From: a phage
Assembly: GCA_021469345.1 (NCBI GenBank)
Contig: GCA_021469345.1_3049.1
Reading direction: 5' to 3' (one strand)
DNA length: 64,000 nt
Every line of letters starts with the position of its first letter. Positions within the stretch are counted from its first letter, which is position 1. The position numbers and the translations under genes were made by a program. Below the pieces are notes generated by a model, which searched no databases, was not told the origin of the DNA, and saw nothing but the letters and a program-made list of their open reading frames with translations. Below, piece by piece: positions 4,713-47,120 of the stretch.

Positions 4713-5170
4713 ACCCATTTATCAATCGTTTAAAAATGTTAAATGTTCCTTTATCTCGTGAAACTCCAGAAAGTCTTGTTGAAAAATTTAAAGCGCATGG
4801 TTATAAATGCACAGAAGAAGATATTCTGAAAGAAGTTCCTGAAATCTGTTGGCAGACTGCGTATTGGGATGAAAACCAAAAGTATCAACGACGAATTGTC
4901 TGCGCAGCCAACCGTTTTAAATTAAAAGATGGACGAACTCTTATTATTCCAGGTGCTCGTCATTATTCTAAAGATATGGCAGAAGTTTTAGATGTAGTTA
5001 AACCTCAATTAGTTACTCAACAAGTTTGTGATGATGACCAAGGGTTTATTGACCAATATAGTAATTATTGGACACGTGAAGAAGCAATGATTATTGCAAC
5101 TTACGCTGGACAAGTACGTATTGAACGTGGTGGTAGTGAAAAAGAACTTTATTCTGAGGACCTTTACTAA
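4709..5170 (+). CDS. hypothetical protein (153 aa)
   Basis: ORF track; ATGA overlap with the upstream ORF. Confidence 0.5.
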
Positions 5171-5466
5171 TGAATATTAAACAGTTTCAAATTGATGGAA
5201 TTATGAATCAAATCCAGGCGCTGGAATATGCTAATAAAATGATGTCAACCAAATGGGGAATTTATGCCAATGAACCGGCATTTCAGTTCTGTAATATGGA
5301 ATTCACTAAAAAGCTCGTAGGAAAAGATTATGTATGTCCATTTAGTTCTCCAGTAAATGGAATGCTAAAACCTGCTTTACGCGATCTTTATATTGCGATG
5401 AACGAAGAAATGATAAAAGAGTTAAAACGTCAACTGAAGGTGATTCAATTTGGCCAGGGAAATTAA
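5170..5466 (+). CDS. hypothetical protein (98 aa)
   Basis: ORF track. Confidence 0.45.
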   Translation: MNIKQFQIDGIMNQIQALEYANKMMSTKWGIYANEPAFQFCNMEFTKKLVGKDYVCPFSSPVNGMLKPALRDLYIAMNEEMIKELKRQLKVIQFGQGN

Positions 5467-6464: not shown

Positions 6465-7121
6465 TTATTTAGCCCTTCCTAATATTCTGGCCGCCTGAGC
6501 ACATATTGATTCAAGGCGGTCATTACTTATATGATCATTTCTATACCAGTACATGGTTATTGTTCCAGCATAGATATTATCCAAATTGAAATATGGACAA
6601 CTGTACATGTAATTTATTTCGGGAGTAGGCTTTTTAGTTGGTAAAAAAGCAAATTTTGAGTTGGAATAATAATGACGTCCATTTAAATGAACTGTATATT
6701 CATCCATAGTTTTATCAACAGGATATCCTCCAAGTGATTTTTCACTTATTGTTGAAGGTAATTTTCCTTCGTATGCTATAATATCAACAAAATAGTTTAA
6801 GTTTTTAGGGCGGAAAGAATACACCGCACTAAAGTCTGCCTCAGATGATATATGAACTATCTGGAGTTGTTCCAGGGCGACAGATTCAAAGCGTGCAGTT
6901 CTTTCCTTTTCAATAATTTCACTGTATGTTTCATACTTTGATTGCTTATAGTACTCAAAGAAACTATCTCCCCTATACCAAACAATCGCCATTATAAACA
7001 AAAGAATTACGACAGCTACCCGGGAAGCAAGAACTTTCCCGGTAGCGTTATCTTTGAACAAGCGATCTAGAACACCAAATAGAATATCAGAGGGCGAAAA
7101 TGATATTCTAGGTGCTGCCAT
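6465..7121 (-). CDS. t: holin T
   Basis: 218 aa; N-terminal TM segment and large C-terminal domain; length equals T4 T. Confidence 0.9.
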   Translation of the reverse strand: MAAPRISFSPSDILFGVLDRLFKDNATGKVLASRVAVVILLFIMAIVWYRGDSFFEYYKQSKYETYSEIIEKERTARFESVALEQLQIVHISSEADFSAVYSFRPKNLNYFVDIIAYEGKLPSTISEKSLGGYPVDKTMDEYTVHLNGRHYYSNSKFAFLPTKKPTPEINYMYSCPYFNLDNIYAGTITMYWYRNDHISNDRLESICAQAARILGRAK

Positions 7122-7152
7122 AGACCCTCCTTTTAAGGATATTTATTCAAAA

Positions 7153-7959
7153 TTATACTCTTGAACCGTATATTGTACCAACTTTAGTCCAAGTTGGAGC
7201 ATTACCAGTAACAGCTTTACCCGCTGCACCAGCACCACTGGTATTATAGTTTAATGTACGGACAGCAGCGCCGCCAGCAGAACCAACATTACCACCTGCA
7301 CCACTCATGTTATTACCGTCAACGGTTACTTTACCACCTGCGGCGGTTAACGATGCATTACCACCATTACCTCGACCACCTCGACCACCAGTACCGAAAG
7401 GACGTCCGCCTCCACCACCAGCAACATTACCTAATGTGAAGTTATAATCTACGGACCAACCACCGCCGCCACCGCCACCGCCAGCAATTGCACCATTATT
7501 CGTAATACGTAAGCGTGTACCAATACCATTATTAATCGCTGTACCACCAGCAGTTGCTCGAACTAAAGCATCTCCAGAACCTCCACTAGATCCAGATCCA
7601 TTACCTCCTCGGCCATAAACAGTAACGCCAGAGTTAATAATCAATGTCACATATTCATTAGTTAATGAACTAGGAAAATCTAAGCACGGAATAGTTGAAG
7701 AACTAGAAACAATATCTCCTGTTATTGTTACAACAGCAGGAGCTGTTCAAATTGATTTAAGCCAATTAATTAAAGTATCTTTATTATATGAATGATTTGA
7801 GCCAATTGAATAAGCTTTTTCAACTGACTTTCCTGCCATTGAACTCATCCAACCGGGAACTGAAACACGAACTGCTCTCATCGCAGCATCCATCCAACGT
7901 TGTCCAGTTTCATTCACGGCAGATTCGCCAATCCAGCCAGGAACACCTACAATTGCCAT
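7153..7959 (-). CDS. 38: gp38 receptor-binding adhesin (T2-type, glycine-rich), interrupted by an in-frame TGA at 7747..7749
   Basis: N-terminal MAIVGVPGWIGESAVNETGQRW... (7959..7750) and glycine-rich C-terminal part (7650..7153) are in the same frame, separated by one TGA and 33 sense codons. Confidence 0.7.
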
Positions 7960-42365: not shown

Positions 42366-42634
42366 TGTTTGTTGTTCACACTATTTATGAAAATGAAGGT
42401 AATACTACACGTGATTACGGTCACGTAAATCAATTTTTTAGATGCAATCCAGAATTCCGATCTCAAAAAGACGAACGAATTTTTAAAAAATGCGTAGAGC
42501 AAGGTTTCATTTATATCAAGCACTGGATGCAAGGAAATAAAGTTAGAACTACATATCATAAGTCTTTGCCTGAGCTTAATGATGAATTGATTTATAATAG
42601 AGCTGTAAACCAAACTCTAAAGGATGAACAATGA
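42365..42634 (+). CDS. hypothetical protein (89 aa), 30.1 position
   Basis: ORF track. Confidence 0.5.
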   Translation: MFVVHTIYENEGNTTRDYGHVNQFFRCNPEFRSQKDERIFKKCVEQGFIYIKHWMQGNKVRTTYHKSLPELNDELIYNRAVNQTLKDEQ

Positions 42635-44094
42635 TTCTTAAAATTCTGAACGAAATAGCATCTATTGGTTCAACTAAGCAGAAGCAAGCAATTCTTGAAA
42701 AGAATAAAGATAATGAATTGCTTAAACGAGTATATCGTCTGACTTATTCTCGTGGGTTGCAGTATTATATTAAGAAATGGCCTAAACCTGGTATTGCTAC
42801 CCAGAGTTTTGGAATGTTGACTCTTACCGATATGCTTGACTTCATTGAATTCACATTAGCTACTCGGAAATTGACTGGAAATGCAGCAATTGAGGAATTA
42901 ACTGGATATATCACTGATGGTAAAAAAGATGATGTTGAAGTTTTGCGTCGGGTGATGATGCGAGACCTTGAATGTGGTGCTTCAGTATCTATTGCAAACA
43001 AAGTTTGGCCAGGTTTAATTCCTGAACAACCTCAAATGCTTGCAAGTTCTTATGATGAAAAAGGCATTAATAAGAATATCAAATTTCCAGCTTTTGCCCA
43101 GTTAAAAGCTGATGGAGCTCGGTGCTTTGCCGAAGTCAGAGGTGATGAATTAGATGATGTTCGTCTTTTATCACGAGCCGGTAATGAATATCTAGGATTA
43201 GATCTTCTTAAGGAAGAATTAATCAAAATGACCGCTGAAGCCCGCCAGATTCATCCAGAAGGCGTGTTAATTGATGGCGAATTGGTATACCATGAGCAAG
43301 TTAAAAAGGAACCAGAAGGCCTAGATTTTCTTTTTGATGCTCATCCTGAAAACAGTAAAGTTAAAGACTTCACAGAAGTAGCTGAATCACGTACTGCATC
43401 TAATGGCATCGCCAATAAATCTTTAAAGGGAACCATTTCTGAAAAAGAAGCTCAATGCATGAAGTTTCAGGTCTGGGATTATGTTCCGTTGGTAGAAATA
43501 TACGGTCTTCCTGCATTTCGTTTGAAATATGATGTACGTTTTTCTAAACTAGAACAAATGACATCAGGCTATGATAAAGTAATTTTAATTGAAAACCAGG
43601 TAGTAAATAACCTAGATGAAGCTAAGGTAATTTATAAAAAGTATATTGACCAAGGTCTTGAAGGTATTATTCTCAAAAATATCGATGGATTATGGGAAAA
43701 TGCTCGTTCAAAAAATCTCTATAAATTTAAAGAAGTAATTGATGTTGATTTAAAAATTGTAGGAATTTATCCTCACCGTAAAGACCCTACTAAAGCAGGT
43801 GGATTTATTCTTGAATCAGAGTGTGGAAAAATTAAGGTAAATGCTGGTTCAGGCTTAAAAGATAAAGCCGGTGTAAAATCGCATGAACTTGACCGTACTC
43901 GCATTATGGAAAACCAAAATTATTATATTGGAAAAATTCTAGAGTGCGAATGCAACGGTTGGTTAAAATCTGATGGCCGCACTGATTACGTTAAATTATT
44001 TCTTCCGATTGCGATTCGTTTACGCGAAGATAAAACTAAAGCTAATACATTTGAGGATGTATTTGGTGATTTTCATGAGGTAACTGGTCTATGA
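42631..44094 (+). CDS. 30: ATP-dependent DNA ligase
   Basis: 487 aa; adenylation-site KADGAR; length equals T4 ligase. Confidence 0.95.
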   Translation: MILKILNEIASIGSTKQKQAILEKNKDNELLKRVYRLTYSRGLQYYIKKWPKPGIATQSFGMLTLTDMLDFIEFTLATRKLTGNAAIEELTGYITDGKKDDVEVLRRVMMRDLECGASVSIANKVWPGLIPEQPQMLASSYDEKGINKNIKFPAFAQLKADGARCFAEVRGDELDDVRLLSRAGNEYLGLDLLKEELIKMTAEARQIHPEGVLIDGELVYHEQVKKEPEGLDFLFDAHPENSKVKDFTEVAESRTASNGIANKSLKGTISEKEAQCMKFQVWDYVPLVEIYGLPAFRLKYDVRFSKLEQMTSGYDKVILIENQVVNNLDEAKVIYKKYIDQGLEGIILKNIDGLWENARSKNLYKFKEVIDVDLKIVGIYPHRKDPTKAGGFILESECGKIKVNAGSGLKDKAGVKSHELDRTRIMENQNYYIGKILECECNGWLKSDGRTDYVKLFLPIAIRLREDKTKANTFEDVFGDFHEVTGL

Positions 44095-44279: not shown

Positions 44280-44300
44280 AGGCCTTCGGGCCTTTAATTT

Positions 44301-44308: not shown

Positions 44309-44331
44309 GAATAAACACTAGAGAGGTTATG

Positions 44332-46380
44332 ATGGAACTTATTACAGAATTATTTGATGAAGATACTACTCTTCCGATTACAAACTTAAATCCAAAGAAG
44401 AAAATACCACAAATTTTTTCAGTTCATGTTGATGACGCAATTGAACAACCAGGCTTTCGTTTATGTACCTATACATCTGGAGGTGATACTAATCGTGATT
44501 TAAAGATGGGCGATAAAATGATGCATATTGTTCCTTTTACATTAACCGCTAAAGGTTCAATTGCTAAATTGAAAGGTCTTGGTCCAAGCCCAATTAATTA
44601 TATCAATTCGGTTTTTACTGTTGCAATGCAAACAATGCGTCAGTATAAAATTGATGCCTGCATGCTTCGTATTCTTAAGTCTAAAACCGCCGGTCAAGCT
44701 CGACAAATTCAAGTTATTGCTGATAGACTTATCCGTAGTCGTTCAGGTGGCAGATACGTCCTTCTTAAGGAACTCTGGGATTATGATAAAAAGTATGCAT
44801 ATATTCTTATACATCGCAAAAATGTATCACTAGAAGACATTCCAGGGGTTCCGGAAATTAGTACCGAGCTCTTTACTAAAGTTGAATCGAAGGTCGGTGA
44901 TGTTTATATCAATAAAGATACTGGAGCTCAAGTAACTAAAAATGAGGCAATTGCAGCATCTATTGCACAAGAAAATGATAAACGTTCTGACCAAGCTGTA
45001 ATCGTTAAAGTTAAAATTTCCCGTAGAGCAATTGCACAAAGTCAGTCATTGGAATCTTCTAGATTTGAAACACCGATGTTTCAAAAATTTGAGGCTTCAG
45101 CGGCAGAATTAAATAAACCAGCGGACGCGCCTTTAATTTCTGATTCTAATGAATTAACGGTAATTTCTACTTCAGGATTTGCACTAGAGAATGCTCTTAG
45201 CAGTGTTACAGCTGGGATGGCATTCAGAGAAGCTTCTATAATTCCTGAAGATAAAGAATCCATTATTAATGCAGAAATAAAAAATAAAGCTTTAGAAAAA
45301 TTACGAAAAGAATCTATTACTTCAATAAAAACTTTAGAAACTATTGCTTCTATCGTCGATGATACTTTAGAAAAATATAAAGGTGCTTGGTTTGAAAGAA
45401 ATATTAACAAACATTCGCATTTAAATCAAGATGCTGCAAATGAGTTAGTACAAAATTCTTGGAATGCAATAAAAACAAAGATTATTCGAAGAGAATTACG
45501 TGGATATGCTCTTACCGCTGGATGGTCATTACATCCTATAGTCGAAAATAAAGATTCATCTAAATACACACCAGCGCAAAAACGCGGAATTCGTGAATAT
45601 GTAGGTTCAGGATATGTAGACATGAATAATGCTCTTTTGGGATTATATAATCCAGATGAGCGTACAAGTATTTTAACAGCATCTGAAATAGAACAAGCCA
45701 TTGATAATTTAGATTCAGCCTTTAAAAATGGTGAACGATTACCAAAAGGTATTACTTTGTATCGTTCACAACGAATGTTACCTTCAATATATGAAGCAAT
45801 GGTAAAAAATCGAGTTTTTTATTTTAGAAACTTTGTGTCAACATCATTATATCCAAATATTTTTGGTACTTGGATGACTGATTCATCTATAGGTGTTTTA
45901 CCAGACGAAAAGCGTCTAAGTGTTTCTATTGATAAAACTGATGAAGGACTAGTAAATTCTAGCGATAATTTAGTTGGAATTGGATGGGTTATTACTGGGG
46001 CTGATAAGGTCAATGTTGTTTTACCCGGTGGAAGTTTAGCGCCTTCAAATGAAATGGAAGTCATTTTGCCACGTGGATTAATGGTCAAAGTTAATAAAAT
46101 AACCGATGCATCTTACAACGATGGAACAGTTAGAACTAACAACAAGCTTATTCAAGCTGAAGTTATGACCACAGAAGAACTCACCGAATCGGTAATCTAT
46201 GACGGAGACCATTTAATGGAAACTGGTGAATTGGTTACAATGACAGGTGATATAGAAGACAGAGTTGACTTTGCATCATTTGTTTCATCAAATGTTAAAC
46301 AGAAAGTAGAATCATCTCTTGGAATTATTGCGTCTTGCATAGATATTGCAAACATGCCTTACAAGTTCGTTCAAGGATAA
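44332..46380 (+). CDS. alt: Alt ADP-ribosyltransferase (packaged; modifies host RNA polymerase)
   Basis: 682 aa from ATG 44332; MELITELFDEDTTLPITNLNPKKK... matches T4 Alt. Confidence 0.9.
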   Translation: MELITELFDEDTTLPITNLNPKKKIPQIFSVHVDDAIEQPGFRLCTYTSGGDTNRDLKMGDKMMHIVPFTLTAKGSIAKLKGLGPSPINYINSVFTVAMQTMRQYKIDACMLRILKSKTAGQARQIQVIADRLIRSRSGGRYVLLKELWDYDKKYAYILIHRKNVSLEDIPGVPEISTELFTKVESKVGDVYINKDTGAQVTKNEAIAASIAQENDKRSDQAVIVKVKISRRAIAQSQSLESSRFETPMFQKFEASAAELNKPADAPLISDSNELTVISTSGFALENALSSVTAGMAFREASIIPEDKESIINAEIKNKALEKLRKESITSIKTLETIASIVDDTLEKYKGAWFERNINKHSHLNQDAANELVQNSWNAIKTKIIRRELRGYALTAGWSLHPIVENKDSSKYTPAQKRGIREYVGSGYVDMNNALLGLYNPDERTSILTASEIEQAIDNLDSAFKNGERLPKGITLYRSQRMLPSIYEAMVKNRVFYFRNFVSTSLYPNIFGTWMTDSSIGVLPDEKRLSVSIDKTDEGLVNSSDNLVGIGWVITGADKVNVVLPGGSLAPSNEMEVILPRGLMVKVNKITDASYNDGTVRTNNKLIQAEVMTTEELTESVIYDGDHLMETGELVTMTGDIEDRVDFASFVSSNVKQKVESSLGIIASCIDIANMPYKFVQG

Positions 46381-46382
46381 AT

Positions 46383-46739
46383 CATGGAACTTATTACATA
46401 ATTATTTGACGGCGCTTCGGCGCCGGTTGTTAACTTAAATCCTAAGCATAAAATACCACAAATTTTTGCTATTCAAGCCGGCGAAGAAAGCGTGCTTCCT
46501 GGATTTAGATTTTGTACATACACCTCTGGCGGTGATACAGATAAAACGTTAAACCAGGCGACAAAATGATGCATATCGTAATGATAGGTGTTAATGAGAA
46601 ACTATCATTAGTTAAGCTTAAAAACTTGGGTGGAAATCCAATTGGTGTCATTAATGCTGTTTTGATACTGCTCTTCAAACAATGAAACAGTATAAAATCG
46701 ACGCATGCCTATTACGCGTACTAAAAAGTTCAAAATGTG
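46383..46739 (+). pseudogene. decayed partial duplicate of the alt 5' region
   Basis: ATGGAACTTATTACATAA (MELIT-stop), then LFDGASAPVVNLNPKHKIPQIF...FCTYTSGGDT..., frameshifts, ...QYKIDACLLRVLKS; parallels the Alt N-terminus. Confidence 0.65.
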
Positions 46740-46793
46740 GTTTACAAGTCCCTCGTGTTGTGTTATAGTAGTCTTACTGACATAACATGAGGA
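46740..46793 (+). promoter_or_regulatory. T4-type early promoter, copy B of the 54-bp exact repeat
   Basis: Identical to 33532-33585. Confidence 0.6.
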
Positions 46794-46800
46794 ACACAAA

Positions 46801-47091
46801 ATGAAATCTTCTTTACGCTTTTTAGGTCAAGAACTTGTAGTTGAAGGCGTTATTCCTGCTGATAACGCTTTTAATGAAGCAGTTTATGATGAATTTATCA
46901 AAATTTTCGGAACAGATAAAAAGTTTGGAATTTTTCCTTCTGAAAATTTTTCAAAGCCAGAACAGACTGAAAGTATTTTTCAGGGTGTAGTAACAGGTAA
47001 ATTTGAGTCAGAAGCTCCGGTAAAAATTGAAGTTTATATTGAAGACAGTTTAGTTGCTTCAGTTGCTGCTTTTATTTCATTCCGTAAATAA
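46801..47091 (+). CDS. hypothetical protein (96 aa)
   Basis: ORF track; SD GAGGAACA. Confidence 0.5.
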   Translation: MKSSLRFLGQELVVEGVIPADNAFNEAVYDEFIKIFGTDKKFGIFPSENFSKPEQTESIFQGVVTGKFESEAPVKIEVYIEDSLVASVAAFISFRK

Positions 47092-47093
47092 AA

Positions 47094-47120
47094 ACATGGG
47101 GACCGAAAGGTCCCCATTGT
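47094..47120. terminator. bidirectional terminator hairpin (GGGGACC-GAAA-GGTCCCC) between convergent genes
   Basis: Perfect GC stem flanked by A-rich and T-rich tracts. Confidence 0.6.

Follow-up and report, generated by a model that had tools for sequence, protein, structure and literature searches.

A truncated and decayed tandem copy of alt between alt and alt.-3 in a close relative of bacteriophage T4

Introduction

In bacteriophage T4 (NC_000866 / AF158101), the interval between the ADP-ribosyltransferase gene alt and its neighbour alt.-3 (123065-123450) is annotated with two small open reading frames (ORFs), alt.-1 (61 aa) and alt.-2 (67 aa). An excerpt of the T4 GenBank note states that the two 'together reflect an old duplication of the first part of gene alt, into which a stop codon and new ...', and Nolan et al. 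(2006, PMC1524935) likewise list the T4 locus as a paralogous duplication of the alt start. Because the T4 annotation already records the feature in the form of these ORFs, a pseudogene locus at this place is known, and is an ordinary one.

Expression of the fragment has been followed in T4. The transcripts of alt.-1 and alt.-2, like that of alt, belong to the 'middle' class. The corresponding proteins are listed as NA, i.e., not detected, which for very small proteins is weak evidence; Alt is a late protein and Alt.-3 is early in both RNA and protein, and both were detected (Wolfram-Schauerte et al. 2022, PMC9697503 Table S2). The region is thus transcribed with alt in the published T4 data. 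This pattern would fit read-through of the fragment as the 3' trailer of the alt mRNA, with alt.-3 served by an early promoter of its own.

Here we compare the T4 locus with the corresponding locus in a 64,000-nt stretch of phage DNA (NCBI GenBank assembly GCA_021469345.1, contig GCA_021469345.1_3049.1), hereafter the window.

The alt region of the window

Because about 500 Tequatrovirus records match the region at 90-99.6% identity (megablast) and the gene order is T4-like, the window can be assigned to a Tequatrovirus closely related to T4. The local order is lig, alt.1, alt, the stump of a second alt-like gene (alt2), alt.-3 and gene 54, as in T4 with the map reversed. The genes that frame the stump, and the stump itself, are as follows.

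42631-44094, + strand: DNA ligase gene
Between ligase and alt: alt.1, a 62-codon ORF
44329-46380, + strand: alt, a 683-aa ORF in the program-made ORF list (682 aa counted from the second ATG, at 44332)
46384-46729, + strand: 5' stump of alt2, equivalent to the alt.-1 + alt.-2 region of T4; codons 1 to ~116 of 685, in three frames
46801-47091, + strand: alt.-3, 96 aa, DUF5498 (Pfam PF17602, E=1.4e-64), named after the T4 annotation

The alt gene is orthologous to T4 alt and matches Pfam PF03496 (ADPrib_exo_Tox) at aa 375-615 (E=3e-34); it encodes an intact packaged ADP-ribosyltransferase and is the functional paralogue of the stump. Its stop codon, TAA at 46378-46380, is followed by a 3-nt spacer, ATC. 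On the other side of the stump, alt.-3 is an intact downstream neighbour that lies outside the pseudogene. T4 escapes the CmdTAC defence system via C-terminal extensions of alt.-3 (Vassallo et al. 2024, PMC11618068); compared with these extensions, alt.-3 in the window has the normal 96-codon form. Gene 54 is located on the opposite strand and is convergent with alt.-3. [quoted passage not shown]

The alt.-1/alt.-2 region of T4 occupies the same place between alt and alt.-3 and is identical to the window at 352 of 361 nt (97.5%). The two share a deletion junction, a frameshift in an A-run, a GC-rich hairpin and a promoter, each of which is described below. The window copy is, however, further decayed than that of T4, with a TAA at codon 6, an alt.-2 of 39 codons, and a TGG in place of the former stop codon TAG. 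With codon 6 being TAA, the window has no 61-aa alt.-1 ORF, unlike T4, and neither of the two full-length T4 ORFs is open; what is left are 5 codons of alt.-1 and 39 codons of alt.-2.

The stump is a diverged copy of the alt 5' end

A preliminary description of the window, made by a model from the letters and their ORFs, had reported a decayed tandem copy of the alt 5' end directly after alt, with the alt start repeated 3 nt past the alt stop codon. The spacing stands, whereas the coordinate shifts by one, the repeated start (ATGGAACTTATTACA) beginning at 46384 and not at 46383. From there to 46735, the window repeats the first ~117 codons of alt in diverged form. In a MAFFT alignment with alt 44332-44700, 231 of 362 positions are identical (63.8%). 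A blastn search of 46383-46739 against the whole 64-kb window returns one piece of 71% identity over 200 nt (E=5e-22) and a second piece at E=0.002, both of which are the alt 5' end; besides these, the window contains no other non-self match better than E=0.78. The similarity between stump and alt is far beyond chance, and the proposed tandem copy is confirmed by both the alignment and the search.

We note that the similarity is unevenly distributed. The first 29 nt of both paralogues (44332-44360 and 46384-46412) are identical except for the window's own G to T change at 46399, and other short blocks, AAAATACCACAAATTTTT, GGCGAYAAAATGATGCATAT and CAGTATAAAAT, are near-identical despite an overall nucleotide identity of 64%. 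It is possible that such blocks reflect patchy gene conversion, or else strong constraint on the N-terminal peptide MELITELFD, which may direct the protein to the capsid or be needed for cleavage by the prohead protease.

The reading frame of the stump is interrupted by a nonsense codon, two frameshifts and a 1,699-bp deletion, the first three of which are located within the stump.

46399-46401, + strand: stump codon 6, GAA changed to the nonsense codon TAA (T in 12 deletion alleles, the window's among them; G in T4, T2, PP01 and JB75)
46543-46546, + strand: first frameshift, A5 to A4 in a homopolymer; in T4, this change separates alt.-1 and alt.-2
46660-46663, + strand: second frameshift, T5 to T4 in a homopolymer; shortens the alt.-2 ORF from 67 to 39 codons

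The TAA at codon 6 and the two or more frame shifts read from the sequence beforehand are therefore both present, the shifts being two in number. When the intact paralogue of T2 is used as a tblastn query, its residues 1-61, 55-94 and 92-120 fall in three different frames (46384-46566, 46545-46664 and 46655-46741, respectively), with amino-acid identities of 87-95% over residues 1-94 (two frame pieces) and of 79% over residues 92-120, where the match runs past the deletion junction. Only residues 1-120 are represented, and the same search finds nothing of residues 121-685 in the window. The reconstructed stump has no Pfam match, and the PF03496 catalytic domain is absent from it.

Close relatives carry an intact second alt-like gene

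In T2, PP01, JB75 and RB32, the syntenic position 3 nt past the alt stop codon is occupied by an intact alt-like coding sequence of 2,058 nt (685 aa), followed by the same promoter and alt.-3. This full-length alt2 is labelled 'alt.-2' in RB32 and 'alt_2' in some other records. Its product matches PF03496 at aa 416-620 and is 41% identical to Alt overall, with higher identity over the first ~240 residues. The first 348 nt of intact alt2 are 93-97% identical to the window stump, hairpin included (95.6% for T2). Set against these four genes, which are intact and retain PF03496, the window lacks codons ~117-681. The segment is thus what it had been taken for, the remnant of an inactivated and truncated tandem alt-like ADP-ribosyltransferase gene, of which relatives carry the complete version.

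The complete version is also the common one. The translation of the T4 stump, reconstructed by removing the frameshift, matches ~430 records of a phage collection as one uninterrupted piece at 90-95% identity (tblastn), and these records are annotated as Alt-like ADP-ribosyltransferase. The body of alt2 (C-terminal 446 aa) is found at 95% or higher amino-acid identity in 402 phage records. Full alt2 is accordingly present in ~400 of the ~500 Tequatrovirus records, or about four fifths, and is about four times commoner than the short allele; four of the ~400 intact alleles (T2, PP01, RB32 and JB75) were sampled at the sequence level. Literature searches on the deletion and on the function of the second Alt paralogue yielded nothing mechanistic; their one find was a passing statement, from 2026, that one Tequatrovirus has two Alt-like paralogues.

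The short allele lacks 1,699 bp between two 9-bp direct repeats

Aligned with the T2 locus (L003) by blastn, the window breaks into two pieces, 46300-46729 with T2 4917-5348 at 95.6% identity and 46721-46898 with T2 7039-7216 at 93.8% identity, which overlap by 9 nt in the window. The overlapping 9-mer, CTAAAAAGT, occurs twice in long alleles, 1,699 bp apart (positions 5340 and 7039 in T2 L003; 2841 and 4540 in JB75 L015), and once in the window. The short allele of the window and T4 is therefore the long allele minus the 1,699 bp between two 9-bp direct repeats. The elements around the junction are as follows.

46721-46729, + strand: deletion junction, the sole retained copy of the 9-bp direct repeat CTAAAAAGT, placed by the blastn overlap
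46730-46740, + strand: the final 11 nt of what was alt2 (...TTC AAA ATG TAG in relatives), placed by alignment with the right flank of T2/PP01 and 18 other deletion alleles
46740-46769, + strand: alt.-3 early promoter, GTTTAC / TTTACA, 17-nt spacer, TATAGT

In intact alt2, the left repeat covers codons ~114-116 and reads CTA-AAA-AGT, and the right repeat, 9 nt before the stop codon, reads T-CTA-AAA-AGT-TC. Because the two are read in different frames, the join is out of frame. The deletion removes the middle and the catalytic part of alt2 and joins the stump to the last 11 nt of the gene, and the C-terminus of T4 Alt.-2 (...SSKCSLQVPRVVL) is an out-of-frame read through the alt.-3 promoter. 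The former stop codon TAG (46738-46740) is TGG in the window by an A to G change at 46739 that occurs in no other sampled sequence; this change directly abuts the -35 hexamer, GTTTAC, of the promoter.

An early promoter had been placed at 46740, and this assignment holds: TTTACA-17-TATAGT at 46741-46769 is of the sigma-70 type and is the best promoter match of the region (10/12, with a TG extension), and the record of phage Lutter annotates a promoter at the same place. Phages with intact alt2 keep this promoter, where it overlaps the alt2 stop codon. With the right breakpoint 11 nt ahead of the -35 hexamer, it survives the deletion.

The junction is spanned by ~90 records (91 in megablast; it is also seen in the first 11 of 60 evenly spaced rows). 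Exact-pattern scans of IMG/VR return 2 contigs with the junction and 1 with the intact left repeat, numbers too small for an estimate of frequency. The same junction is found downstream of at least three length classes of alt (2049/2052, 2088 and 2094 nt; window 44329-46380 and loci L002, L005-L014 and L019-L023), an arrangement more suggestive of mosaic recombination in the surroundings of the locus than of simple clonal descent.

The opposite polarity, in which only the first part of alt was duplicated and the long gene of T2, RB32 and others arose later by insertion into alt.-2, agrees with the wording of the excerpted T4 note ('old duplication of the first part of gene alt') and with the RB32 record (L025, DQ904452, 2602-4659), where the 685-aa 'alt.-2' carries the remark 'apparent insertion in alt.-2; similar to alt'. 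We consider this order of events extremely unlikely. From start to stop, the long allele is complete and colinear with alt, catalytic domain included, all of which an insertion would have had to reconstitute precisely. The 9-bp repeat bears the signature of a deletion, with two copies in long alleles and a single one in short alleles, and the frameshifts and the stop codon of the short alleles are absent from the long ones. In addition, it is the long allele that prevails among the records, with a body conserved at 95% amino-acid identity or more.

Deletions between short direct repeats and frameshifts in homopolymers are classical in T4, from rII and lysozyme genetics and Streisinger slippage, and both are reportedly treated by Singer and Westlye in work of 1988. 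The deletion in the window resembles this classical mutagenesis, in that a 9-bp repeat flanks the lost segment with one copy kept, and in that both 1-nt frameshifts fall in five-base runs. Unlike the laboratory mutants of T4, the window deletion is a natural allele, fixed across several Tequatrovirus species. From the sequence we infer that the deletion and the frameshifts would have arisen by mechanisms of this kind.

Short alleles form a graded decay series

Of the ~90 alleles with the deletion, 19 distinct ones were aligned with 3 long alleles. Besides those of the window and T4, the 19 comprise alleles from 15 further GenBank phages and from 2 IMG/VR contigs, one of which appears to be phage G8, with an identical stump sequence. 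The junction is the same in all 19, which points to one deletion event. Beyond it, the short alleles carry seven different secondary lesions, distributed as follows.

AV121: no secondary lesion (A5, GAA at codon 6, open 128-codon ORF)
All short alleles except AV121 and SG1: A5 to A4 frameshift
T4, G8, Lv5cm, HMD9 and one metagenomic contig: A5 to A4 as the only lesion
12 of 19 alleles, window included: GAA to TAA at codon 6
Window, IME537, CE1 and PD112: T5 to T4, 39-codon alt.-2
HY03: 7-nt tandem duplication
F1: 9-nt deletion
F25: 1-nt deletion in the A-run of the junction
SG1: C replacing the first A of the run (frame kept), with the codon-6 stop
Window alone among sampled alleles: A to G at 46739, TAG to TGG

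The A5 run is found in T2, PP01, JB75 and AV121; every remaining deletion allele, including those of the window and T4, has A4, with the exception of SG1 (AATCAAAACG). As both SG1 and AV121 keep the frame at the A-run, the order of lesions is not strictly linear, and recombination or recurrent homopolymer slippage is needed to account for it. The T5 to T4 change is common only to the four alleles listed, and the records of IME537, CE1 and PD112 annotate a 120-nt ORF at the site of this frameshift.

Because decay differs from phage to phage, no reading frame is conserved across the 19 short alleles, and the pattern of lesions, as read from these sequences, is that of neutral decay. Lesions that vary by lineage, next to an intact orthologue at the syntenic position in relatives, are marks of a unitary pseudogene. 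Divergence of the stump, 2-7% over 348 nt, leaves too few substitutions for dN/dS, and the independent frameshifts and stop codons provide the stronger test. A conserved small protein under purifying selection, which the preliminary description had set against its own proposal, is thus not what the alleles display.

That the stump encodes selected small proteins, i.e., Alt.-1 (61 aa), Alt.-2 (67 aa) or, as in AV121, a 128-aa N-terminal Alt-like domain, is in our judgement very unlikely. The ORFs are annotated in T4 and many relatives, the Shine-Dalgarno sequence and the ATG are kept, the region is transcribed in T4, and the 67-codon alt.-2 ORF is open in most sampled alleles (12 of 19). Yet alt.-1 of the window ends after 5 codons and its alt.-2 is cut to 39, the codon-6 stop is carried by 12 of the 19 alleles, and alt.-2 has been independently broken or altered in 7 of the 19, by four different indels; the T4 proteins were not detected, and the alt.-2 C-terminus is an out-of-frame read through a promoter. 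Some slight room is left for a small-protein function in the 12 phages in which alt.-2 is open.

One short allele is unusual upstream of the stump as well. The RefSeq record of HY03 (L009, NC_031047, 1-198) has only a 645-nt 'Alt-like' coding sequence at that place, which points to an interruption of alt itself, or to a sequencing error, in this record.

Origin of the locus

Taken together, the homology to alt, the intact relatives, the junction and the lesion series are very probably explained by an old tandem duplication that gave alt and alt2, a 1.7-kb deletion between 9-bp repeats in one lineage, and decay by drift of the resulting stump, which is transcribed 3' of alt and otherwise has no function. 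The duplication would have yielded two full-length paralogues, and most Tequatroviruses retain both. In the lineage to which T4 and the window phage belong, a single deletion of 1,699 bp between the repeats CTAAAAAGT, by slippage or recombination, would then have stripped alt2 of its middle and catalytic part while sparing the alt.-3 early promoter that overlaps the alt2 stop codon. The stump, which we infer to be functionless, would subsequently have gained the A5 to A4 frameshift common to T4, the T5 to T4 frameshift shared with IME537, CE1 and PD112, and the nonsense mutation at codon 6. Today it most likely does no more than trail the alt coding sequence as untranslated 3' RNA; a ribosome may still start at the old ATG, using the AAGGA Shine-Dalgarno sequence in the 3' end of alt, and would halt after five codons. 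The stump has not been deleted further in the ~90 records, and its persistence could reflect recent origin or some residual use, e.g., as an RNA element.

By itself, this is textbook gene loss in a phage accessory locus, which matters little alone and will not surprise a T4 specialist. What is added here is the polarity of the truncation and its exact mechanism, the allele frequencies, and the graded decay. The polarity corrects the T4 note on a duplication of the first part of alt and the RB32 note on an apparent insertion in alt.-2, since it was T4 and the window phage that lost 1.7 kb. The alleles form a natural series from the intact gene to an open 128-codon stump, to the split alt.-1/alt.-2, and to stumps with stop codons and more frameshifts, which argues for annotating alt.-1/alt.-2 as a pseudogene, not as hypothetical proteins. 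The model phage T4 is thereby without a paralogue of an injected enzyme that purifying selection maintains in ~80% of the closely related phages sequenced, and the missing paralogue may matter for studies of ADP-ribosylation in the conflict between phage and host.

The GC-rich hairpin is native to alt2

The stump contains a perfect GC-rich hairpin close to its 5' end.

46410-46425, + strand: C(UUCG)G tetraloop hairpin, CGGCGC-TTCG-GCGCCG, six pairs, -12.8 kcal/mol, at codons 9-15 of the intact paralogue

The hairpin had been noted before and described as having replaced part of the coding sequence. Its presence is upheld, with six pairs, but the replacement is not, as the hairpin corresponds to native codons 9-15 (D-G-A-S-A-P-V) of intact alt2. 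It is only in comparison with the paralogue alt that a segment, GATGAAGATACTACTCTTCCGATT, appears 'replaced' by GAC-GGCGCTTCGGCGCCGGTT. Since the hairpin is native to intact alt2 and is the same in long and short alleles (3 of 3 intact and 19 of 19 deleted alleles aligned), it was not inserted into a dead gene.

Two further interpretations of the hairpin were considered and rejected. As an intrinsic terminator it lacks a U-tract, the stem being followed by GTTGTTAACTT, and the terminator scan that finds the 47096-47117 hairpin does not report it. Its invariance is likewise no evidence of function, the flanks being equally invariant.

A role as RNA, in which the C(UUCG)G hairpin 30 nt past the alt stop codon protects or processes the 3' end of the alt mRNA, or weakly attenuates transcription before the alt.-3 promoter, would be compatible with a pseudogene. 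The hairpin is stable (z = -2.3) and invariant in the 22 aligned sequences, similar GC-rich UUCG hairpins lie at other intergenic sites on the same strand, including one just before alt, and the region is transcribed with alt in T4. On the other hand, the hairpin pre-exists in the coding sequence of the intact paralogue and so was not acquired for an RNA role; it has no U-tract behind it and goes unreported in the terminator scan, conservation is uninformative next to equally invariant flanks, with no covariation available, and in its 81-nt context the fold is unremarkable (z = -1.3, dinucleotide shuffles). We regard maintenance as RNA as unlikely. More doubtful still is co-option in a specific form, either of the hairpin and its flanks, which would stabilise the late alt mRNA at its 3' end or form a barrier to processing there, or, in 128-codon alleles like that of AV121, of a free Alt N-terminal domain that is packaged or competes with Alt for capsid targeting.

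GC-rich stems capped by UUCG recur in the window at 1814, 3619, 39483, 40361, 44281, 46410 and 59029, all on the + strand, which is the strand of ligase, alt and alt.-3. Hairpins of the UUCG type were reportedly first described in T4 intercistronic regions, by Tuerk et al. in 1988. The hairpin at 44281-44296, AAAGGCC-TTCG-GGCCTTT (-13.5 kcal/mol), lies between alt.1 and alt and is followed by AATTTT, and the JB75 record annotates a terminator there.
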